DNA from: Thermotogota bacterium
GTDB taxonomy: Bacteria > Thermotogota > Thermotogae > MWEM01
Direction: 5' to 3'
Assembly (NCBI GenBank): GCA_035447925.1
Contig: DAOTHY010000001.1
Location: 108,300 to 172,299, forward strand
Length of the DNA stretch: 64,000 nt
In this document: one piece after another, positions 13,586 through 55,443 of the stretch
Layout: each line of letters opens with the position of its first letter
Position numbering within the stretch: the first letter of the stretch is position 1
Notes under the pieces: model-generated
Databases searched by the model: none
Told to the model about the DNA's origin: nothing
What the model saw: the letters and a program-made list of their open reading frames with translations, nothing else
Position numbers and translations under genes: made by a program

Positions 13586-13939
13586 TGGTGGAGGCGGGGG
13601 GAATCGAACCCCCGTCCGAAAACAGCGCATAAAAGGCATCTACGTGCGTAGCTCTTGTTTGAATTTCAGATTAATATGGTACAAAAGCAAACCACATCAA
13701 TCCTATCTGCAAAGTTTTCCTCTATTTTAACGCAGAGATAAAAAAGAGTGAGCCCGAATTATCGTCGTTCTTTCATCCCGTCTCGAGCTAAACAGTCTGA
13801 AGAACGGCAGCCTTTTTAGGCTGCTAATGCAAATTCTGTTTCGTCAATTAATTTGATTGTTCACCCGTTTAACGAGTCTGATGAAAACTCGGCACGCTTC
13901 CTTATATTTGTCAGCTTCCGTCGAACCCTGATCGCCCCC
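13586..13939 (-). ncRNA. ssrA: tmRNA (ssrA), about 354 nt
   Basis: On the minus strand the 5' end is GGGGGCGAUCAGGGUUCGACGGAAGCUGAC and the 3' end is GGACGGGGGUUCGAUUCCCCCCGCCUCCACCA. This gives a tRNA-Ala-like acceptor stem with a G3:U wobble, a T-arm and a terminal CCA. The internal tag ORF ends ...DETEFALAA-TAA, carrying the canonical ALAA degradation tag. Confidence 0.9.
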
Positions 13940-14031: not shown

Positions 14032-14640
14032 TTATTTGATGACCTGATGATCAAGCCAATACAATAACTCATGACAAGCGAATTGTAATTCTTCCAAAGT
14101 TCCCATATTATAGATGACGTAATCGACTTTACTTGCATCAACACGTTGATTATCCAGAATCAGTTTGGTTTCTTCGAGAGTTTTTCTGTCCCGTTGTATG
14201 ATACGTTTGATAATCTCTTTTTCCGCAGCTTGTATTAAAACTGTGTAATCCAAAAAAAGTTCCATTTTCATTTCAAAAAGAACGGCGGCTTCAATGAAAA
14301 CTAAACTGTCTCCTTTTTCATGATGCTTGATAATCCATTTTTTAGCCTCTTCATTCATAATGGGGTGTAATATGGAGTTGAGTAAGGCAAGTTTTTTTTG
14401 ATCGACAAACACAATCTTTGACAATTTTTTTCGATCGATTTTTTGTGACTCATCCAAGATATGTTGTTTAAAACAAGATGTGAGTTTATTGACAACATCC
14501 TTTTCTCCCAGACAGTCATGGCCAACCCGATCCATAAAAAGGACCGGATAACCGGTCCTCATTAGATAACGTGCCACCTCACTTTTTCCTGATCCCATCA
14601 ATCCGGTAATACCGACGCTGATTTTTTTTTGCATCAGCAT
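14032..14640 (-). CDS. coaE: Dephospho-CoA kinase
   Basis: P-loop GITGLMGSGKS at the N-terminus and a length of about 200 aa. The start may instead be MQKK at 14634. Confidence 0.85.
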   Translation of the reverse strand: MLMQKKISVGITGLMGSGKSEVARYLMRTGYPVLFMDRVGHDCLGEKDVVNKLTSCFKQHILDESQKIDRKKLSKIVFVDQKKLALLNSILHPIMNEEAKKWIIKHHEKGDSLVFIEAAVLFEMKMELFLDYTVLIQAAEKEIIKRIIQRDRKTLEETKLILDNQRVDASKVDYVIYNMGTLEELQFACHELLYWLDHQVIK

Positions 14641-45632: not shown

Positions 45633-47987
45633 TTATGGTATTTGTTTCCAAAAATGATCAAGAATGGATCTGATTTCTTTTTCATTTCTGATACTAATGG
45701 CATGAGACCAATCGGCAGGAAAAATGAACGGGTAAGGTTTTCTGATAAAGCGTTCGTCTATGAGAATAACTGCTCCCTTATCATCATGTGATCGAATCAC
45801 TCTGCCAACTGCTTGCATAACTTTGTTGGCTCCAGGAATAATATAGGCGTATTCCCAACCTTTCCCCAGTTTTTCTTGATAATAGTCTTTTATAATATCT
45901 CTGTCAAATCCAATTTGAGGCAAACCAACTCCAACAATGATGGCTCCGCTTAATCGACTGCCGATTAGATCGATTCCTTCACCAAAAATCCCGCCCATCA
46001 AGACAAAACCGACAAAAGTCTGTTCGGGGGAGTGTTTGAAAGCATCTAAAAATGCTTCTCTTTCAGATTCGCTCATGAGAGGTGTTTGCATCCTTGTTAA
46101 GATATGTGGGCATTTTTCTGTGAACAAATGGTAGATCATTTCCATGTATTTGTAGGATGGGAAAAAAACCATATAGTTACCCGTGTGTTTGGTCATCAGT
46201 TCGATATTCTTTACGATAGCAGCTGCAGAGTATATTCTCGCATGGTATTTAGTGGAAATCTTAGAATTAACCAGTAAACAAAGTCTTTGTTGATTAAACG
46301 GCGACCTAAGAATCAGAGAATAATCGTCATCTTTAGAACCAAACAACTGTTTGTAATAATCCAGAGGTGATAATGTTGCAGAAAAAAAAACGCATGAGCT
46401 TCCTTTTTCTATCATTTCTCTAATATGAAGAGAAGGATCGATACAGTAAAGGGTTAAAGTTTCTTCGGTATTATCGTAAATGGTGATATAATGATCGTCA
46501 TATCTTTCCATTGCATTATTGAAGGTGTTTAATTCGAAAAAGTAATCAGTGAGTTTTTCCTTTAACGCATCAAACCCAGGCGTCATCAGGTAAGAAGCAA
46601 TTTCTTTTAAAACTGTTTCAAGGGGTTCTTTGATATCTTCAGGCAGTTCTTTTTTTTTCCATTTTGTCTCCAAATTCTCATTGAGGAAATAATAAGCGAC
46701 CTCTGTTTCCAATTTTCTGGCACTGATGGCTATTTTTGACTCAGTATGCCTGACATCGTTTCGCAATTTGCGTAAACGATCAAGGGAGAGAGGTGCTGAA
46801 TACATTTCTCTTGATCTATCTGGAAGGTTGTGGGCTTCATCGATCAAAAAGATATAAGGTCCTTTTTCTTCAAAATATCGTCTCAGATAAGCCCGTGGAT
46901 CGAATAAATAATTATAATCGCAAATAATGCAATCCGAAAACTCTGACAAATCCAATGAAAGCTCATAAGGGCAAATTGAAAATCGCTTTGCATGCTCTTG
47001 TATCATTCTGCGGCTGTAATGTCCTTCTTCTTTTATTATTTCAAGTAAAGCATCGTTAATCCTGTTATAATGGCCATTGGCATAAGGACAACTGTAAGGA
47101 TTACATTTGAATTCCTGATTGATACACATTTTTTCTTTGGCTGTGATCACGATTGATTTTAATTTTAGTCCTTTTGTTCTTAGAAGATTTAGGGTGTTTT
47201 CTACAGTCTGTCGAGTGATGGTTTTAGAAGTAAGATAAAAAAGAGGACCGGCCAAGTTTTTCTCCATGGCTTTAATTGATGGAAATAGCGTTGCCAGAGT
47301 TTTACCGGTTCCGGTAGGTGCTTGTGCAAATAATTTCTTGTTGTCCTTTATTGTATGGTATACCATAATGGAGAACCTTCTCTGACCTTCCCGGAAATGA
47401 GGGAAAGGGAATTGCAGATTCTTGATGCTGGTATTTCTCAGCTCAATCCAGTCATCTTTTAACTTTAACCATTTGGAATATAGAACACACAATTCATTGA
47501 AAAAATTCTCAAGGACTTCTTTGGAGTAAAAAAAATCAAGATGCTTCATGTCTTCCGTATCGATGTTAAAGTAAGTGATTCGCAAATGAACAGATTCCAA
47601 TTTTTCTCTGCTACAAATCATATGACCATAACACATACACTGTCTAAGGTGGTTTTGATCCAAAATAGCATCAATATCTTCCAAAGGTACTTTTGTTGTT
47701 TTTATTTCATCAACTGTTATTTCTTTCTGATGAGTGTGTATTCCATCGGCTCTTCCGAATATTGATAACAACATTTTTTGGTTTTGATAAATGCCGTTCA
47801 AATAGACTTCACTTTCATATTTTCCTGGAAAACTGTCTTCATACTGTTTTTGAATTCGCTTATGTGCTTTAGTCCCAATAGTGGCTCTTTCTCTCATATC
47901 CGGGGCATTGAAGCGATTATCTAGATTTCCCGATCTGAATAAAAATTCAATAAGTTCCCTAACCGATACCGAATGCTCTTTCAACAA
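45633..47987 (-). CDS. DinG/XPD(Rad3)-family Fe-S DNA helicase fused to N-terminal RecB/Cas4-like PD-(D/E)XK nuclease domain
   Basis: The N-terminal ~190 aa carries SVSVRELIEF (an SxSxL..Y/F-like nuclease N-motif), GRADGI (GxhD), VDEIKTTK (D/E-x-K) and a CxC..C cluster (CMCYGHMIC). The helicase has Walker A (AQAPTGTGKTLA), an XPD-type 4-Cys Fe-S insertion (C..C..C...C) and DEAHNL. The TTG start at 47987 has an AAGGAG RBS and overlaps the upstream gene stop. Confidence 0.7.
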   Translation of the reverse strand: MLKEHSVSVRELIEFLFRSGNLDNRFNAPDMRERATIGTKAHKRIQKQYEDSFPGKYESEVYLNGIYQNQKMLLSIFGRADGIHTHQKEITVDEIKTTKVPLEDIDAILDQNHLRQCMCYGHMICSREKLESVHLRITYFNIDTEDMKHLDFFYSKEVLENFFNELCVLYSKWLKLKDDWIELRNTSIKNLQFPFPHFREGQRRFSIMVYHTIKDNKKLFAQAPTGTGKTLATLFPSIKAMEKNLAGPLFYLTSKTITRQTVENTLNLLRTKGLKLKSIVITAKEKMCINQEFKCNPYSCPYANGHYNRINDALLEIIKEEGHYSRRMIQEHAKRFSICPYELSLDLSEFSDCIICDYNYLFDPRAYLRRYFEEKGPYIFLIDEAHNLPDRSREMYSAPLSLDRLRKLRNDVRHTESKIAISARKLETEVAYYFLNENLETKWKKKELPEDIKEPLETVLKEIASYLMTPGFDALKEKLTDYFFELNTFNNAMERYDDHYITIYDNTEETLTLYCIDPSLHIREMIEKGSSCVFFSATLSPLDYYKQLFGSKDDDYSLILRSPFNQQRLCLLVNSKISTKYHARIYSAAAIVKNIELMTKHTGNYMVFFPSYKYMEMIYHLFTEKCPHILTRMQTPLMSESEREAFLDAFKHSPEQTFVGFVLMGGIFGEGIDLIGSRLSGAIIVGVGLPQIGFDRDIIKDYYQEKLGKGWEYAYIIPGANKVMQAVGRVIRSHDDKGAVILIDERFIRKPYPFIFPADWSHAISIRNEKEIRSILDHFWKQIP

Positions 47988-50900
47988 TAGTTTTCTCCTT
48001 GGACGTTCTCAGAAAAAGCCTCAGAAAAATCCGTTGAATGCAAGTTGGTATTTGATGTAATCAATCGAACAGGGGAATCGTCCCCATAAATAATGAAGCC
48101 ACCCCATATCCATGAAGGGGCTTCTCCCCACTGGCTTCTCAACTGATGAATCAATTTCTGTTTTGAGGCCTTTAAAGCTTCGGATTTTTTCATCCCGGTC
48201 AGTAGGAAATTGTAAAAAAAAGACATTAGTTTTACCGTAAAAACATCCGGTACATTCCATAGGCTGACCATAACTGATGAAACACCTGAAGAAATCAAAG
48301 CTGAACAAAGCCCCATGATACCCTCTCCTGGATTTATTTGACCAAGACCGGTTTTACAAGCAGAAAGTACAACAATTTCTGTATTGAGTAAATTTACTGA
48401 TAAAATATCCGATGCCGTTAATAAGCCATCTTCATAAATTTCCGGTATAGTCTCACCTCTAAGAATATTGTTAATGCCACTTAAAGCTATACCGCAACGC
48501 GCATAGGGATGTACATCTACCCGATTTTCGAGATAAAAACCATGGGTGGCCAAATGGAGAATAGACGGGGACGTTATTTTTTTCATTTCACCATCATTTA
48601 CAGAATCTTTGCTGAATACGAACACATCATCCTTTTTTAAGCCTTGTCCAAAGAGAAGGTTTGATATTTCCTGCGCTTCAGAAGCGGTTCCAGGTAATTC
48701 TTCAAATTCTTCCAATTCTTTTATCAACAGCTGGTTCTGGTAAGAGATTTCTTTTTTAAGGTTTGGATCATTATTGATTTCAAATGAGGGGTTGGCAAAA
48801 ATATATACTTTGTTATTAAATTCTTTGACATTTTCTTTTTGATTAATCAAATCCCTTCCTGAACAAAGGTATTGAACAGCGTAGTTTTCTATGAGATAAT
48901 GACCGTTTTCGCAAATAAGTGTTTCAAAAGGAAGGTTGTTAAACTCACCATCAGGTGAAACAAATAGTTTGTTAATTCGGGAAAGATTAAGTTGCGTTTG
49001 ATTTTGAAAAAGAATCTGCCATATTTTTTGATGGAATAACTCAGGTGCTGAGCTGTTTTGAAGCACAGCCGAAGGGGATTTCTCCCCACGCATATGGCCG
49101 GTTTCACGAAATTGGCCCTTCTTGATGATCTGTTCAATTTCGCTGGCATTGTCAATAAAATAATAATGTGTTTTGTCATGATGGATATAGAACAGGATAT
49201 AGCCAGTCGTTTGATTTTGTCTCGTGGATCTTTTTTTGTCTTGACTGTAGACAACCGATTCATAAAAATCAAAAAAGTTAAATTTAAAAATATCCACAAA
49301 CAAAGCGTCTTGAGGAATCTTGCTTTGTAGCAGTTTGAGCGTTGCTCTTTTTGTTTTTGAATGTAATAGAAACGTTGATTCAGGTGACATGCGGAAAGCA
49401 CTGGCTATTCTGCTTTCAATTGTATCAGCCTTTGAGTTGAGTTCTTTTATCTTTTTTCTGTTTTCCTCAGCAGTTTCACTAAAATAACCTTTGGTTGTCC
49501 GCAGTACAATTTCTTCTTTTATCCTGATCAACGACTCAAAGAGGTCTTTTAAAAATGGGTTTGTGCCTTTTAAAATGGAGTGATAACGTTCGACTCCTGT
49601 TTCAAAAACGACCGCTTTTCTTCTTAAAATAATGCCAAAGATCTCTTGCATCATGTCGTTTATTTGAGAGTCATTCACTTTTTGTTCTTTTTGGAGTAGA
49701 TAAAAAAGACTAAGAAGTTTGTTCAATTCACCATCTATTCGTTGTAAAAAATTCCATGCATAGTCTCTGGAAAAGGATGTTGATACTTCAAGCAGTATAT
49801 CATTTTGGATATCAGTCGCTTCCTTGAGGATGTTATAAGCTGCTTCTGGTTGAGAGAAGACAATGAAACTGTGTGCGAGCATACCTAAGATCTTGGTATA
49901 CTGAATATGTCTTTTTCCGGTTAATTGTTCTTGTATTTTCAACGCCATTTCCAAGTTGTCAAAAGTGGATAAGTCATCTTGGTTGATGAGATAGATTTTT
50001 GAAAGATTGGAAAGAATTTTAATTTTAATATCAGGAATCATTTCACAGGACTGCAACGGTTTTAATATTTTCATGGCTTTAGCTGTATTCCCCAAGTTGA
50101 TTAGCAAAACAGCATAATTAATTTTGATTTTCAACAACGTAATCGGCATGTTTTTTGTATTACAGTTCAGCAATTCTTCAAAGCCTTGTTGAGCAACTTC
50201 CAATTTACCCAGATGAAGCTGTGCTGAGAGAAGGTTGTTGCAGGTGGTGATGGTTTTTGGATGATCCTTTCCGAAAATTTTTTGTGAATAATCAAATGAT
50301 TTTTGTAAATGATTTTCCGCTGCTTCGTAATTCCCGGTTTCCAAATACAACACACCCATATTATTTTCTATGGTGTCTGTTAATTCATCTGTTCCGTTTA
50401 ATTGTGAGATTTCTAGTGCCATCAGATATTTTTCGATAGATTTAGCGTATTTTCCCCAATACTGATACAAAAGTCCCGTATTCCAAAGGGTTTTGATATA
50501 GTCTTCAATGTGTCCGATAATTTCGCTTTCGAAAATCTTTAAGACTTCAGTAAAAATTTTTTCAGCTTCCGTAAATCTACCTAATTCAGTATATAAAAGC
50601 GCTAAATTGGAAGACGTTTCAATTGTATCAGGATGAGAACCGCCAAAAAGAGCTCTTCGACTATCATAAGCTTGTTTATAATAATCCATTGCAAAATCAT
50701 AATTTCCTTTATAATAATGCAATTCTCCAAGGAGGTTTTTGATAAAGGCGATAAAGTCATTATTTGGTTGAGTTCTCTCCATTTCCTGCTTTAAAATTTT
50801 TAGTACTAATGCTTCAATATGATCGAAAAATCCAAAAAGCAAGCAAGTTTGATTAATCATCAGGGTTAATTCTTTTTTTGACGAATAATTATATTGATTG

Positions 50901-51016
50901 TCTACAAGCATTTGTTCAACGATTTGTTCTGAATACTCAAGAAATTGATCAGTTTGCTGCAGTTTTGCGAAGCCTTTTATTTTTTTTTTAATGTTTTTGA
51001 GAGATGAATTTTCCAT
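47981..51016 (-). CDS. TPR-repeat CHAT-domain protein (caspase-like cysteine protease, clan CD fold)
   Basis: 1011 aa. The N-terminal two-thirds contain many TPR-like repeats (e.g. AMDYYKQAYDSR..., YEAAENHLQKSFDYSQK...). The C-terminal CHAT domain has the catalytic His (ILHLATHGFY) and Cys (VLSACKTG) at the expected spacing. Confidence 0.75.
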   Translation of the reverse strand: MENSSLKNIKKKIKGFAKLQQTDQFLEYSEQIVEQMLVDNQYNYSSKKELTLMINQTCLLFGFFDHIEALVLKILKQEMERTQPNNDFIAFIKNLLGELHYYKGNYDFAMDYYKQAYDSRRALFGGSHPDTIETSSNLALLYTELGRFTEAEKIFTEVLKIFESEIIGHIEDYIKTLWNTGLLYQYWGKYAKSIEKYLMALEISQLNGTDELTDTIENNMGVLYLETGNYEAAENHLQKSFDYSQKIFGKDHPKTITTCNNLLSAQLHLGKLEVAQQGFEELLNCNTKNMPITLLKIKINYAVLLINLGNTAKAMKILKPLQSCEMIPDIKIKILSNLSKIYLINQDDLSTFDNLEMALKIQEQLTGKRHIQYTKILGMLAHSFIVFSQPEAAYNILKEATDIQNDILLEVSTSFSRDYAWNFLQRIDGELNKLLSLFYLLQKEQKVNDSQINDMMQEIFGIILRRKAVVFETGVERYHSILKGTNPFLKDLFESLIRIKEEIVLRTTKGYFSETAEENRKKIKELNSKADTIESRIASAFRMSPESTFLLHSKTKRATLKLLQSKIPQDALFVDIFKFNFFDFYESVVYSQDKKRSTRQNQTTGYILFYIHHDKTHYYFIDNASEIEQIIKKGQFRETGHMRGEKSPSAVLQNSSAPELFHQKIWQILFQNQTQLNLSRINKLFVSPDGEFNNLPFETLICENGHYLIENYAVQYLCSGRDLINQKENVKEFNNKVYIFANPSFEINNDPNLKKEISYQNQLLIKELEEFEELPGTASEAQEISNLLFGQGLKKDDVFVFSKDSVNDGEMKKITSPSILHLATHGFYLENRVDVHPYARCGIALSGINNILRGETIPEIYEDGLLTASDILSVNLLNTEIVVLSACKTGLGQINPGEGIMGLCSALISSGVSSVMVSLWNVPDVFTVKLMSFFYNFLLTGMKKSEALKASKQKLIHQLRSQWGEAPSWIWGGFIIYGDDSPVRLITSNTNLHSTDFSEAFSENVQGENYC

Positions 51017-51036
51017 TTTTACCCCTCTCTTTCTTT

Positions 51037-51828
51037 TTAGGAGAGTTTGCTCTGCTTTTGTATAGAAAAGGGTTCAAAAGCTAGTAGGTATTTTCCTGGG
51101 TTTAACCCTTCAATTGAAACCTCAAACTGATCTTTGTTTTTTGATTCGTAAGCCGTTCGAATGATGGGTTTTCCGCTTTGAGTGGGGATTAATATGATCA
51201 CGGGTGAAGATTGCCAACCTGGTGCTTTATTGCAAATAATGTGTATGGCCTTTGTTTGAGAATGAGCCTGTATTTCTAATATCATCTTTTCTTGTAAATA
51301 GCCATTAAGTATATTTTCGCGTTTTTTCTCGAATGGTGTGTTTGTGTTTCCCCTCATAGCGAATGATTCCACTGGGTACTTGAATACAAGAGGGTTTTCC
51401 GGATTCATGGTGCTTTTTTTAAAGATTTTTGTAATATTTGATATGCCGTTATATGAAGTATCCATGACTACATCCACAGTATTGCTTATGAAAACACCCC
51501 ATTCTTTTAGCCAGTTTAAAATTCTGATTCTGATAGATTGATCTTGATATGGAAGTTCTTTCAGAATATTGATCATCATTTTTTGGCTCCGGGTAGGTTT
51601 TTCTTCTGTCCATTCCTGAAAAGAAATTGAGAAATCCAAGGCCTTTGTGAGCCTTGACAAACACAGGTCACATTCATTTAAATGCTCTTCCATTCGGATG
51701 ATTTCTTCCATCGGTAAAACTGGAATTTCCTTGCTATGATGAATAGGAGGGTAAAAAACAGACCTTTTTTGGATATATTCAGAATCAATGTATTTTTCGA
51801 TTTGTTCAATCGTCAAATGCTCTTTCAT
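51037..51828 (-). CDS. Putative anti-sigma factor, zf-HC2 type, soluble
   Basis: It carries the HLNECDLCLSRL (H-x3-C-x2-C) motif typical of zf-HC2 anti-sigma N-domains. It lies immediately downstream of the sigma factor gene and has no clear TM helix. Confidence 0.5.
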   Translation of the reverse strand: MKEHLTIEQIEKYIDSEYIQKRSVFYPPIHHSKEIPVLPMEEIIRMEEHLNECDLCLSRLTKALDFSISFQEWTEEKPTRSQKMMINILKELPYQDQSIRIRILNWLKEWGVFISNTVDVVMDTSYNGISNITKIFKKSTMNPENPLVFKYPVESFAMRGNTNTPFEKKRENILNGYLQEKMILEIQAHSQTKAIHIICNKAPGWQSSPVIILIPTQSGKPIIRTAYESKNKDQFEVSIEGLNPGKYLLAFEPFSIQKQSKLS

Positions 51829-51895
51829 AATAACACCTCACTATTCTTGTCGATCACATGATTATACTTTGCTTCTTATGATCATGTCGCATGAC

Positions 51896-53002
51896 TTAAC
51901 TTTCCAGTACTTTTTTTCTCAGCCTTTTAAGAACTCGATGATTCCAGTCTCTTATATTTTTTAAAGGATCCTTTCCAAAAAAAACGGATAATGACAAGTC
52001 CGCTAATGGATCATCAAGATAATCTTGTAGATAGCTTCTTGATTGATGATCTTTGGTTGGGATTACATCCTTAAGGATTAACATCAACTGATTTTCAAGG
52101 GGTTTGAAGATCTCCTCTAACTCTTCAATATCATGAAAAGAACTCTTTGAAAAAGATGTTTTCATCTCTTGAAAGAGCCTTGATAAAGGCAAATCGGATA
52201 ATGCTGTGATGTCGGTTCTCTCATCCGTTATCTTTGTTAATAAGACGACCAACACTTGCCAAGGATAACCTCCTACCGCAACCATTTGTTCCAGGAAATG
52301 TCTTTCTTGGGTTGTTTTTTCTTGTATTTGATCTGGTGAAGGGTCTTTTGAGATCGCCCAAAAAATTGGAGTAGTATCCTGCTCGTTTTGTTCGTTAAAA
52401 TCTGAAACAAGTGTTTCAGGAATTGTGGTTTCATCTTTAACCAAATGATCTGCGATGGAAATCAGATAACTAAATAGTGTGCCTTTGTATGGATTAAAAT
52501 TCGTAGCGTATCGTTCAAAGCGTTGAAAAGTTTCCAACATCAGATCAGTACATCTATTATTGAAATACTCGGTTCCCTTTATCCCTAAAAGATTTTTACT
52601 AATGTATGATTTGATTGGTAAGCTGTATTCTCGATACAATTCATTCATTCCAGATGCTTTTCGTTTTGTTATCAGTTTTAAAAGTAATAAATCTTGGCAG
52701 ATTCTGAACATCCACATCCGATAGAGTTCCATCTGATTATCAATATGTTCTTCATACACAAAGCTATTAATTCTGGTCCATGATATTTCTCGTGTTTGTT
52801 TGATGAATTGTTCTATCGTTTTTTCCATTTTCTTTTTATCGGATGATTGACCTTCAAACTCTTTTCGAAAACGAAGTTTTATTTTTGATTTAAGCCTTGT
52901 TATCAAAAAAGGTGACTGGTCAGTGCTAAATGCTATATACTCATGATAAAGTTGTTTAGTCTCATTGATCAGTTGTTTGTTTACCATGTTGTCCTCCGTC
53001 AA
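51896..53002 (-). CDS. Sigma-70 family RNA polymerase sigma factor (ECF-like, extended)
   Basis: Region 2 matches DLMLETFQRFERYATNFNPYKGTLFSYLISIADHLVKD (D-L-x-Q-E-x-F ... F-x-x-W/Y-L-x-x-I-A-x-N). The region 4.2-like C-terminus is NIRDWNHRVLKRLRKKV. A ~140-aa N-terminal extension and a long 2-4 linker are atypical. Confidence 0.55.
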   Translation of the reverse strand: MTEDNMVNKQLINETKQLYHEYIAFSTDQSPFLITRLKSKIKLRFRKEFEGQSSDKKKMEKTIEQFIKQTREISWTRINSFVYEEHIDNQMELYRMWMFRICQDLLLLKLITKRKASGMNELYREYSLPIKSYISKNLLGIKGTEYFNNRCTDLMLETFQRFERYATNFNPYKGTLFSYLISIADHLVKDETTIPETLVSDFNEQNEQDTTPIFWAISKDPSPDQIQEKTTQERHFLEQMVAVGGYPWQVLVVLLTKITDERTDITALSDLPLSRLFQEMKTSFSKSSFHDIEELEEIFKPLENQLMLILKDVIPTKDHQSRSYLQDYLDDPLADLSLSVFFGKDPLKNIRDWNHRVLKRLRKKVLES

Positions 53003-53025: not shown

Positions 53026-53772
53026 CTATTTTAGCATATCATCTGATTCATTGATTTCTGGTTGAGAAAACAGATTGTAAATATCGTTTTCATTTAATTC
53101 TTTATATTCTCCTGGTTTCAAAGATGGATCTAATCGAAGAGATCCAATGGCTATTCGATCTAATTCAATGACTTCAGAATGGACCGTTTCAAACATCTTT
53201 TTAACTTGATGGAATCTTCCCTCCGTAATTCCAAGACAAATGGTAAATTGATCTGAGTTTACATCACAAATCTTAAAATAAGTGACAGGTTTAGTCTGAA
53301 AGTCTTTAGTGATTTGAATGCCTTCGAAAAAGAAGTGTGTATCCTCGGGATTAAAATGTATGACAACGGCTTTGTATAATTTTTGGACTTTTTTTGAAGG
53401 CGAAATAATTGAATGTACCAAATCTCCCTGAGTGCTTAATATAAGTAACCCCGTTGTATCAACATCTAATCTTCCTGCAATGGCATAAGTCGGGTGAGGT
53501 TTTTTAATCAGTTCAATAACCGATGGATAACCTGACTCACTTTCGTTAGATGAAACAAATCCCTTTGGCTTATTCATCATAATCGTACTGATTGGTTTTA
53601 TCGTAATAGGTTGACCTTTAAGAGATATGTTTGTTTCAAAATCAACTATTGTGGAAGGTTCTAAACAGATTCTACCGTTCAAGGAAATCAATCCGCTTTT
53701 AATCCATTTTTTCACTTCACTTCTTGACCCATAGCCTGTATTTGAAAGATAACGATCAAGTCTCATTGCCAA
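53026..53772 (-). CDS. rsuA: 16S rRNA pseudouridine synthase (RsuA family)
   Basis: S4 domain (MRLDRYLSNTGYGSRSEVKKWI) and catalytic Asp motif (GRLDVDTTGLLIL). Confidence 0.8.
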   Translation of the reverse strand: MAMRLDRYLSNTGYGSRSEVKKWIKSGLISLNGRICLEPSTIVDFETNISLKGQPITIKPISTIMMNKPKGFVSSNESESGYPSVIELIKKPHPTYAIAGRLDVDTTGLLILSTQGDLVHSIISPSKKVQKLYKAVVIHFNPEDTHFFFEGIQITKDFQTKPVTYFKICDVNSDQFTICLGITEGRFHQVKKMFETVHSEVIELDRIAIGSLRLDPSLKPGEYKELNENDIYNLFSQPEINESDDMLK

Positions 53773-54662
53773 TTTTTACTGCCTCTTGCAAAATAGATTT
53801 CAGAACAAATTAATCTCAATCTTTCCAACACAAAAGCTTCATCGGAATGAATCAGATAACCTGTGTTGAAATGAGTCAAATTGATCAATCTCGGATCTTT
53901 GAAGAATACAACTGCCTGATCCAGTATGGGAGCTGCTAACGGCCTGTAAAAAACTTGAAAAGACTCCATCGAAAATCTCTTTTTGAGTGGGGTGATTCCT
54001 GCTAAAATGATTTCCTGCCTTAGGTCTTTTTCATTAATAACCTTTTGAGACCATTGCCAATCCATGTGAGTCAGTAATGATGGATAATAAAGTACTTCTC
54101 CCGAATAATCAATCACGGCAACGGCCATATCCAGAAATCTTTGTTCCTCTGCTTGGAAATCTTCCAATAAAATTGCAGGAAAGATCTTTTTGTGTTTTAG
54201 GTTAAGAATGAGTTCGTCGTTTAAACCGTATTTAGTGCTTAACACAGGGAAAATACCCCCTGCCATCAAGCCGTTTGTAATCCATTCGATGGACTGTGAT
54301 GCTTTATATGGATCTACGGAAAAAAAAGGGGCAATCACTTCATCAAAACTCCCTTGTATGACTTGTATATTATCAGACATTACTTGACTGTAACCGATCA
54401 CACAGGCTTTGCTGTCAGAAGCTTTTGCCTTTTGAGCCATCAACAGACCAAAACTGAACAGAATATTGGGATCAGTAATGGTTCCAAGAACAAAAGGACT
54501 AATGTCGTTTAAATAATAGGGTAAAGCAGGATAATAAATACCCCAATCAGTATTTGTATGTATGATTTGCTCTTGCAGTCCCTCAACAGTGCTTTGAGCA
54601 CCAAAATTAATGGAGCAAATCAGAATAAAGATGACTGAGAATGTGATAAACCCCTTCTTCAT
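53763..54662 (-). CDS. Exported hypothetical protein
   Basis: I place the start at the internal ATG 54662 (MKKGFITFSVIFILICSINF, a signal peptide). It still overlaps the upstream Cof gene by 56 nt, so the start is uncertain. Confidence 0.4.
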   Translation of the reverse strand: MKKGFITFSVIFILICSINFGAQSTVEGLQEQIIHTNTDWGIYYPALPYYLNDISPFVLGTITDPNILFSFGLLMAQKAKASDSKACVIGYSQVMSDNIQVIQGSFDEVIAPFFSVDPYKASQSIEWITNGLMAGGIFPVLSTKYGLNDELILNLKHKKIFPAILLEDFQAEEQRFLDMAVAVIDYSGEVLYYPSLLTHMDWQWSQKVINEKDLRQEIILAGITPLKKRFSMESFQVFYRPLAAPILDQAVVFFKDPRLINLTHFNTGYLIHSDEAFVLERLRLICSEIYFARGSKNWQ

Positions 54663-55443
54663 TGTTGGTTTTATCAAGGCAAAGTGTCGCAGCCTTTTTA
54701 AGCTTTGGTGTAGCGTTGGCCATAGCAATAGAATAGCCCACCACTTCAAATGCGTATATGTCGTTGTCACCGTCTCCTATCATAATGGTTTGCTTTGGAT
54801 TCAGATTCAGGTACTGAAGTAATTCCAATGTTGCGATTCCTTTGTTTGTTGTGTTTGGGATGTAATCTAAATAAATTGAAAAAGACTTAAAAATATTTAC
54901 CTTCTTTGAGAATAAATTCAGACTATCTTTTTCTATTTCGTGTAGAAATTCAGGTTGACCAATAGCCAATATTTTGTCAACCTTTGTGCCGCTTTTTGTG
55001 CAGTTTGATCGGATCAATTCTGTGAGACTTTCTACAACAAGATAATTGATACCGGCGTGAGCGGCATAATGTTTGATTTGATCATTATCTTCTTCCACAA
55101 TCAACTGGTTATTGATATAGGCTTGTCTGTGACACCTCTTTGAACGAAGAAATTCAATGATTTTTGCTGCTGTTTCGTTGTCTATGAAATGGTGGAAAAT
55201 TGGTTTTAGTTCTCCGGGTATTGTGATTAAACTTCCATTGTAACTTATGATTGGGAATTGATCTGTACCGAAATATTTATTGATGATATGATGGGCAGAA
55301 TCCAGCATTCTACCTGTGCAGAAGATGATGGATATCCCTTTTCGATGAATGGTTTTTAATAAATCAATTGTTTTGATAGATATTTTTAATTCATCATCTA
55401 AGATTGTTCCGTCTATGTCTAAAACAACCGTTTTGTAATTCAA
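54607..55443 (-). CDS. Cof-type HAD-IIB phosphatase
   Basis: N-terminal VLDIDGTIL and C-terminal GDGDNDI motifs. Confidence 0.75.
   Translation of the reverse strand: MNYKTVVLDIDGTILDDELKISIKTIDLLKTIHRKGISIIFCTGRMLDSAHHIINKYFGTDQFPIISYNGSLITIPGELKPIFHHFIDNETAAKIIEFLRSKRCHRQAYINNQLIVEEDNDQIKHYAAHAGINYLVVESLTELIRSNCTKSGTKVDKILAIGQPEFLHEIEKDSLNLFSKKVNIFKSFSIYLDYIPNTTNKGIATLELLQYLNLNPKQTIMIGDGDNDIYAFEVVGYSIAMANATPKLKKAATLCLDKTNNEEGVYHILSHLYSDLLH

Follow-up and report, generated by a model that had tools for sequence, protein, structure and literature searches.

In a 64,000-nucleotide (nt) stretch of DNA from a Thermotogota bacterium (GTDB lineage Bacteria; Thermotogota; Thermotogae; MWEM01), which corresponds to positions 108,300 to 172,299 of contig DAOTHY010000001.1 in GenBank assembly GCA_035447925.1 and is called the window below, a gene encoding a caspase-like protease of the tetratricopeptide repeat (TPR)-CHAT type is the last of three consecutive genes on the minus strand. 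The first two encode a divergent sigma factor resembling the extracytoplasmic function (ECF) family and a soluble protein that resembles zinc-anti-sigma (ZAS) factors. The same three genes follow one another in very distant lineages, and they very probably constitute one functional module. We propose that this module works as a protease-gated sigma switch, in which the TPR-CHAT protein would cleave the linker of the anti-sigma-like protein and thereby free the sigma factor, and we give this proposal roughly even chances of being correct. The coordinates of all the features discussed are collected in Table 1.

The 1011-amino acid (aa) product of the third gene matches the Pfam CHAT profile PF12770 over aa 663-979, with E=2.3e-57 and 195.1 bits against a cut-off of 24, and the alignment covers profile positions 5-289 of 289, a match well beyond chance. 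It is an ordinary PF12770 member, and is already annotated as such in public records. The motif with the catalytic His (ILHLATHGFY) starts at aa 819 and the motif with the catalytic Cys (VVLSACKTG) at aa 882, which puts 62 residues between His825 and Cys887. Both residues are invariant in 8 orthologues, and also in 8 independent lineages, with full-length identity as low as 22%; the orthologues as a whole span 80% to 22% identity. When a profile of the CHAT domain was compared with the PDB, the best solved relative was DdvA (8rot_B, E=0.0099), with the column of Cys887 aligned to Cys907 of DdvA, followed by Csx29 chains (E 0.35-0.83), all of these being weak matches. Cys907 is the catalytic Cys of DdvA (PMC11506125). 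A sequence search of the PDB with the full 1011-aa protein retrieved kinesin-light-chain TPRs only; DdvA and Csx29 were reached only by the CHAT-domain profile. Judging by its intact dyad, the protein is an active-type TPR-CHAT cysteine protease. Neither a signal peptide nor a transmembrane (TM) segment was detected in it by hydropathy.

A first-pass annotation of this DNA had described a CHAT domain with an intact His/Cys dyad at the C terminus of a 1011-aa open reading frame (ORF), all of which is borne out by the searches above, and its estimate for the position of the Cys codon was exact. Other details need amending. Both motifs are where they were seen, but the spacing of His and Cys was put at ∼65 residues. 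The interval given for the domain, 47981..48900, overlaps its true span but cuts off ∼45 N-terminal domain residues and includes the C-terminal tail, which is not conserved. The N-terminal ∼700 aa, described as a TPR solenoid, do contain a TPR platform, but repeats are supported only for ∼250 residues (aa ∼76-321). These repeats match TPR_12 (E=3e-40, 136.7 bits) and TPR_10 (E=1.5e-24, 85.7 bits), as well as TPR_1 and TPR_2, and kinesin-light-chain TPR structures with E down to 7.9e-26. The intervening region (aa 322-660) is conserved, yet without any profile match. Just before the CHAT domain, in a variable linker, there is a conserved Arg643-Gly644 pair, and xRG occurs at the aligned position in 7/8 lineages. 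This pair, which echoes the Arg-Gly in the linker of the anti-sigma-like protein, may speculatively be an autoprocessing or pseudosubstrate site.

The second gene of the cassette encodes a 263-aa protein that belongs to a very small family. As in the case of the sigma factor, the protein from the window has no Pfam match. No hydrophobic segment, TM segment, or signal peptide was found in the 263-aa protein. Its structure model, with a predicted local distance difference test (pLDDT) score of 68.7, consists of a helical part (residues 7-115), a low-confidence stretch (124-161), and a beta-sandwich (167-251). Apart from Met1, full invariance across 14 sequences that represent all lineages is limited to His4, Tyr13, Glu47, His49, Cys53, and Cys56. 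As read from the sequence, an HxxxCxxC motif with an upstream His is the ligand pattern of ZAS proteins, and we take the His/His/Cys/Cys set of this protein to be a ChrR-like HHCC set. The dedicated profile zf-HC2 (PF13490) gives no hit for the window protein; the best score in the family, that of the partner in locus L018, is 20.7 bits against a cut-off of 22.2 (E=4.4e-4), and other members are sub-threshold with E=0.019 to 0.068. Profile searches of the PDB with the anti-sigma-like family retrieved no match at all, and hence no anti-sigma. The sole PDB match of the N-terminal domain, the sulfhydryl oxidase ERV1 (E=0.004), was rejected as spurious, because it is driven by the H-x3-C-x2-C string and the FAD-binding motifs are not conserved.

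The linker between the two folded domains of the 263-aa protein carries a conserved linear motif in which Glu154, Phe156, Met158, Arg159, and Gly160 are invariant among close homologues. Residues 152-161 have pLDDT values <50. Remote homologues keep an Arg followed by Gly or Ser, in the forms AMR↓G, TRR↓GG, PSR↓GG, QAR↓G, SGR↓S, and LR↓SG, where the arrow marks the candidate cut.

The sigma factor, encoded by the first gene, is 363 aa long from its ATG at 52987, and its ORF extends back to a TTG at 53002. A profile search of 1.84 billion representatives returned 132 relatives, 86 of which were scanned with Pfam. Sigma70_r2 was found in 66/86 of these, whereas Sigma70_r4 was found in none of the 86, nor in the window protein, which identifies a divergent ECF-like sigma. 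The protein is composed of a conserved N-terminal extension of ∼100 aa, predicted to be helical and with residues that are invariant throughout the family (e.g. W75), a sigma-2 domain (NPYKGTLFSYLISIADHLVKDE) in which the expected fold is present, an acidic disordered linker, and an atypical C-terminal domain (GGYPWQ ... NIRDWNHRVLKRLRKKV, also written GYPWQ ... RDWNHRVLKRLRK). The latter domain appears to be sigma-4-like, as its ...NIRDWNHRVLKRLRKKV segment resembles a sigma-4.2 recognition helix by eye and by pattern only. The best NCBIfam match is the BldN family, below threshold.

In nine GTDB species genomes, all of them labelled Thermotogota or "uncultured Thermotogaceae", each locus of sufficient length shows the order sigma, ZAS-like, TPR-CHAT. 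The same order was found in metagenomic loci L029, L030, L032, and L039, in which the sigma factors are 27-28% and the CHAT proteins 22-26% identical to those of the window. The genes on either side vary by clade. In the clade of the window, they are dxs and genes for a HAD hydrolase and RsuA; in another clade, an amylase gene and a divergent lipoprotein gene; and in further lineages, genes for IF3, an M20 peptidase, a transketolase, or caspase-PEGA proteins. In the window, 20 nt separate the stop codon of the anti-sigma gene from the start of the CHAT gene, whose ATG is preceded at 6 nt by the Shine-Dalgarno sequence GAGAGGGG, and in L029 and L032 the two genes share 4 nt. No sigma/ZAS neighbors accompany P0016 and P0022, which are generic TPR-CHAT proteins of similar length. 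Within Thermotogota, identities are 33-73% for the anti-sigma, 37-80% for CHAT, 47-81% for the sigma factor, and 61-88% for the neighboring helicase, i.e. the divergence of the cassette follows that of housekeeping genes, but is faster. The GC content of the cassette matches that of its flanks, and these observations fit vertical inheritance.

Two different promoter-like elements are conserved in the cassette. The first is an extended -10 element upstream of the sigma gene; a TGnTAnAAT sequence lies 21-51 nt upstream of the sigma start in 16/19 loci (38-51 nt in 15 of them), which suggests that the sigma gene is constitutively transcribed by the housekeeping sigma. The second is a bipartite motif between the sigma and anti-sigma genes, TGCGACA-N17-GTATAAT, which is kept in most lineages as TGCG(A/G)(C/A)A-N16-17-GTAnnA(T/A). 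It is the only strict match in the window, for 0.09 strict and 0.6 loose matches expected per 64 kb; two other matches, at 14227 (minus strand) and 18594 (plus strand), lie inside coding regions, are at chance level, and were discarded. The motif also recurs beside the cassette, with 2 copies each in L011 and L012, and 4 copies within 5 kb in L029. In clade 2 (L004, L011, and L012), it precedes a divergently transcribed gene for a 435-aa lipoprotein, and the copies in L029 precede the anti-sigma gene, a homologue of this lipoprotein, a secreted PEGA-domain protein (Pfam E=3.9e-9), and a stretch of ∼100 nt ending in a terminator. These findings make the bipartite motif a candidate cognate promoter of the sigma factor, and the envelope genes its candidate regulon.

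In the proposed mechanism, the sigma gene would be expressed from its constitutive-looking extended -10 promoter, and its product would be sequestered by the soluble anti-sigma through the N-terminal His/His/Cys/Cys zinc domain. A cytoplasmic signal, bound either by the TPR superhelix or by the C-terminal beta-sandwich of the anti-sigma, would activate CHAT, which would then cleave the flexible linker of the anti-sigma on the C-terminal side of the invariant Arg159 (FAMR↓G). Upon loss of the truncated anti-sigma, the released sigma factor would transcribe from TGCG(A/G)(C/A)A-N16-17-GTAnnA(T/A) promoters. The sole such promoter in the window would drive the anti-sigma and CHAT genes, thereby creating a feedback, and elsewhere such promoters would also drive lipoprotein and PEGA-domain envelope genes. 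This cleavage model is supported by the domain identities with an intact dyad in the CHAT match, the conserved gene order, the conserved linear Arg-Gly motif in the linker, and the recurring promoter motif, together with the precedents of Csx29, DdvA, and separase.

The closer precedent in structure searches is DdvA from Myxococcus xanthus (PDB 8rot), a ZAS anti-sigma fused to a TPR-CHAT protein that is proposed to self-cleave its linker (PMC11506125). DdvA and its sigma factor DdvS share with the cassette an ECF sigma, a zinc-finger domain of the ZAS anti-sigma type, and a TPR-CHAT part with a His-Cys dyad. However, DdvA is a single transmembrane chain that places its ZAS domain in the cytoplasm and its dimeric TPR-CHAT part in the periplasm, and it controls a CBASS/CRISPR island, whereas the ZAS-like and TPR-CHAT proteins of the cassette are two separate soluble proteins without TM segment and have no defence genes nearby. 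The sigma factor described here differs from DdvS by its N-terminal extension and its atypical C-terminal domain. The other precedent is the type III-E Craspase, in which the TPR-CHAT protein Csx29 cleaves Csx30 in a flexible loop, which relieves the inhibition of CASP-sigma (PMC10028731). Csx29 is activated by Cas7-11 and target RNA, whereas neither Cas7-11, a CRISPR array, nor Csx31 was found in the window (direct-repeat search; no ORF >1011 aa). In addition, the 263-aa ZAS-like protein has no sequence relationship with Csx30 (∼565 aa), in which the cut follows Met or Leu instead of Arg. By analogy, we infer that the cassette is a split, cytoplasmic, and CRISPR-independent analogue of DdvA/DdvS and of Csx29/Csx30/CASP-sigma.

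Other systems resemble parts of the cassette. In the CalpL-CalpT-CalpS system (Rouillon et al. 2023), which is associated with type III CRISPR, a signal-activated protease reportedly cleaves an anti-sigma to free an ECF sigma, with all the components being cytoplasmic. The logic is alike, but CalpL is a Lon-SAVED protease activated by cyclic oligoadenylate, not a CHAT protein, and is CRISPR-associated. Separase (peptidase C50) combines a TPR-like superhelix with a caspase fold, recognizes an unstructured (S/D/E)xExxR motif and cuts after its Arg, and is controlled by a pseudosubstrate or by autocleavage. Arg specificity of the kind known from separase and metacaspase-like clan CD proteases would suit both Arg-Gly motifs, that of the anti-sigma linker and that of the linker preceding CHAT, and the CHAT protein of L039 has a sub-threshold Peptidase_C50 match. 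The P1 preference here is a prediction, and the window protein has no significant sequence relationship with separase. Classical pairs of ECF sigma and ZAS proteins (RsrA/SigR, ChrR/SigE, and RsiW/SigW) share with the cassette the succession of sigma and anti-sigma, the HxxxCxxC motif with its upstream His, and the sigma-2 fold. Here, unlike in these pairs, both partners are below profile thresholds, the sigma gene has its own extended -10 promoter of housekeeping type, the specific motif sits between the sigma and anti-sigma genes, the anti-sigma carries a C-terminal beta-sandwich, and a gene for a caspase-like protease follows. Full-text literature searches that combined CHAT or TPR-CHAT with sigma or anti-sigma yielded only papers on DdvA and on CRISPR type III, and CHAT is not mentioned in the main text of the paper that re-classified the ECF family.

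Several points weigh against the protease-gated switch. Both the sigma factor and the anti-sigma-like protein fall below the curated Pfam and NCBIfam thresholds, and no profile identifies a sigma-4 domain at the C terminus of the former. The spatial closeness of His825 and Cys887 is predicted by homology. We infer, rather than observe, the binding of sigma by anti-sigma, the cleavage of the latter by CHAT, the Arg in P1, the recognition of the promoter, and the trigger. The GCGACA/TATAAT core of the bipartite motif is close to a housekeeping sigma-70 promoter (GCGACA resembling TTGACA, and TATAAT being a -10 element), i.e. the motif may not be specific to this sigma factor, and L039 is without a TGCG motif. 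The triad also has an exception in L038 (6886-9995), in which a sigma/ZAS-like pair has no CHAT gene within 8 kb. In this locus, a TGCGGAA...GTATAT motif lies between the sigma and ZAS-like genes, and the pair is preceded by a secreted 364-aa protein with a PEGA-like C terminus.

Locus L038, in showing that a sigma/ZAS pair can occur without an adjacent CHAT gene, also bears on an alternative in which CHAT is an output of the system. The ZAS anti-sigma would sense thiol or redox stress and free the sigma factor, which would raise the expression of CHAT, and CHAT would act on other cellular or envelope-related targets. RsrA and ChrR-type ZAS proteins sense thiol/redox conditions directly, and the invariant His/His/Cys/Cys set resembles such redox-sensitive sites, while a promoter-like motif directly upstream of the anti-sigma and CHAT genes means that CHAT expression may be sigma-dependent. 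However, many ZAS proteins are not redox sensors, and this alternative accounts neither for the invariant Arg-Gly motif of the anti-sigma linker nor for the fact that, in very distant lineages, the anti-sigma and CHAT genes are strictly adjacent and translationally coupled. We therefore consider it unlikely on its own, although, given a possible feedback, it and the cleavage model could both hold.

An anti-phage or abortive-infection sensor, in which the TPR-CHAT protein would recognize a phage protein and the freed sigma factor would turn on defence genes elsewhere, is also compatible with cleavage of the anti-sigma, and the two links characterized between CHAT and sigma factors, in Craspase and in DdvA/DdvS, both concern defence. 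The cassette of L032 and that of L017 are found among caspase-PEGA-FGE-sulfatase and VWA proteins, a neighborhood reminiscent of conflict systems. Yet PADLOC recognized none of the three proteins of the cassette (CHAT, sigma, and anti-sigma), the 64-kb window contains neither cas genes nor CRISPR-like direct repeats, and the genes of the candidate regulon encode envelope proteins. The GC content, the fixed chromosomal position by housekeeping genes, and a divergence indicative of vertical inheritance also argue against this role, which we regard as improbable. The link to defence that the first-pass annotation had suggested is not supported by what was found in the window. That annotation had also remarked on an active protease in a housekeeping neighborhood. 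The flanks are indeed housekeeping genes, but the picture of a lone protease was incomplete, as the gene is the third of a conserved cassette, and it is this cassette, not the flanks, that provides the functional context of the CHAT gene.

The unusual ∼100-aa extension of the sigma factor and its best NCBIfam match raise a third alternative, i.e. that CHAT matures the sigma factor by removing an inhibitory pro-sequence, by comparison with the pro-sigma factors BldN, sigma-E, and sigma-K. The N-terminal extension of BldN is indeed removed by proteolysis (PMC7826278). The helical nature of the extension and its invariant residues, W75 among them, point to a structural domain more than to a pro-peptide that can be discarded, no conserved motif of the Arg-Gly type or disordered junction was seen between extension and sigma-2, and shorter relatives without the extension (L018) still keep a ZAS-like partner, all of which makes maturation of the sigma factor quite improbable. 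Finally, although many TPR-CHAT proteins stand alone, an incidental adjacency, with TPR-CHAT as a generic scaffold or protease unrelated to its neighbors, has very little to recommend it given that the three-gene order is kept across lineages at 22-28% protein identity with unrelated flanks.

Release of ECF sigma factors by CHAT/caspase-like enzymes has so far been documented only in defence islands, by Craspase and by the fused transmembrane DdvA. A soluble version made of three proteins would be tractable, with a predicted cut (Arg159↓Gly160), His825, Cys887, and a predicted promoter at hand, and the cassette could reveal the activation and the substrates of bacterial TPR-CHAT proteases. Two families that lack annotation, a sigma factor that escapes the standard sigma-70 profiles and its zinc-finger partner, would be given roles, a candidate envelope regulon is indicated, and a cassette this compact could serve as an orthogonal protease-gated transcription switch. 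Only tentatively, and as a combination that we consider rather doubtful in its entirety, we suggest that the cassette might represent a free-standing, chromosomally fixed, and fully cytoplasmic cascade of CHAT protease, anti-sigma, and sigma that needs neither CRISPR nor cyclic nucleotides nor a membrane. Such a cascade would rely on Arg-specific cleavage of a dedicated ZAS anti-sigma, regulate itself through an Arg-Gly pseudosubstrate or autocleavage site in the protease, control an envelope regulon in Thermotogota, and possibly represent the ancestral stock that gave rise to both the Csx29/Csx30/CASP-sigma arm of Craspase and the fused DdvA.

Table 1. Features of the cassette and of the adjoining helicase gene, in window coordinates
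Feature	Position	Strand	Basis
DinG/XPD-family Fe-S helicase with N-terminal PD-(D/E)XK (Cas4-like) nuclease domain	45633..47987	-	Pfam Helicase_C_2, DEAD_2, weak PDDEXK_1
TPR-CHAT protein, 1011 aa	47981..51016	-	ORF; Pfam CHAT and TPR matches
CHAT (caspase-like, clan CD) domain, aa 663-979	48080..49030	-	PF12770
Catalytic Cys887, codon TGT, LSAC motif	48356..48358	-	
Catalytic His825, codon CAT, ATHG motif	48542..48544	-	
Arg643-Gly644, variable linker directly before CHAT domain	49085..49090	-	invariant in 8 orthologues
Profile-supported TPR repeats, aa ∼76-321	50054..50791	-	Pfam TPR_12, TPR_10
Soluble anti-sigma-like protein, 263 aa: N-terminal helical zinc finger (ZAS-like), flexible linker, C-terminal beta-sandwich	51037..51828	-	
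Conserved linear motif FKYPVESFAMRGN in linker, candidate CHAT cleavage site after Arg159	51346..51384	-	
HLNECDLC, HxxxCxxC zinc-anti-sigma motif (His49, Cys53, Cys56)	51661..51684	-	
His4, fourth candidate zinc ligand	51817..51819	-	
Bipartite promoter-like motif TGCGACA-N17-GTATAAT, sigma to anti-sigma intergenic region	51861..51891	-	
Divergent ECF-like sigma factor, 363 aa	51896..52987	-	
Extended -10 element TGCTAAAAT upstream of sigma gene, overlapping TAG stop of RsuA-like pseudouridine synthase gene	53028..53036	-	

Immediately downstream of the cassette, the TTG start of the helicase-nuclease gene overlaps the stop codon of the CHAT gene by 7 nt, with an AAGGAG Shine-Dalgarno sequence inside the CHAT gene. 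On account of this overlap and its retention in clades 1 and 2, the helicase-nuclease was considered as a fourth component, an idea that was rejected since no such gene adjoins the cassette in L013, L029, L030, L032, and L039. The helicase matches the DinG model of PADLOC (E=8e-120), which is listed under type IV CRISPR. We read this match as a generic DinG similarity, because the protein evolves like that of a housekeeping gene and there are no cas genes.

The lipoproteins mentioned above form a family of 435-453 aa, with a signal peptide followed by a Cys and no Pfam match. In four lineages, their genes either diverge from that of the sigma factor or come directly after the cassette, on the minus strand in L004:2501-3805, L011:8582-9880, L012/L024:8571-9875, L026:6751-8073, L027:1542-2861, and L030:8470-9819, and on the plus strand in L029:15853-16491. 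A TGCG...GTA motif is found upstream in clade 2 and L029. No homologue of this family was found in the 64-kb window. In L029:14769-14905, the motif directly follows the CHAT gene, with a strong terminator hairpin (AAAAAAGCCCTC...GAGGGCTTTTTT) ∼100 nt further on and no ORF between the two. The segment may give rise to a short transcript that depends on the sigma factor, or else the hairpin may terminate the convergent PEGA gene.

In the two loci with caspase-type neighbors (L032:664-3654 and L032:8762-10534, and L017:1-6720), the genes next to the cassette encode large Peptidase_C14 (caspase)-PEGA-FGE-sulfatase proteins, or else VWA, CarboxypepD_reg, and FGE-sulfatase proteins. An unrelated metagenomic contig (L041:1-10654) contains at least three tandem paralogues of large TPR-CHAT proteins (995, 1169, and 995 aa) and a fourth large gene of unknown family, which shows that generic TPR-CHAT proteins have a quite different genomic lifestyle.

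Proteins 100% identical to those encoded by 47981..53002 (P0001, P0075, and P0092) are labelled "Bacteroidales bacterium" in public records, whereas all related genomes, including one with 81% identical proteins in the same order, are labelled Thermotogota or Thermotogaceae; one of these labels is probably wrong. Between the genes for the HAD phosphatase and the RsuA-like protein, there is an ORF of 335 aa (53763..54770, minus strand; ∼265 aa in the called genes of related loci) that has no Pfam or NCBIfam match and whose position is conserved in the clade of the window. Elsewhere in the window, a transfer-messenger RNA (tmRNA) gene is found at 13586..13939 on the minus strand (RF00023, 183 bits), the only Rfam family identified in this stretch.

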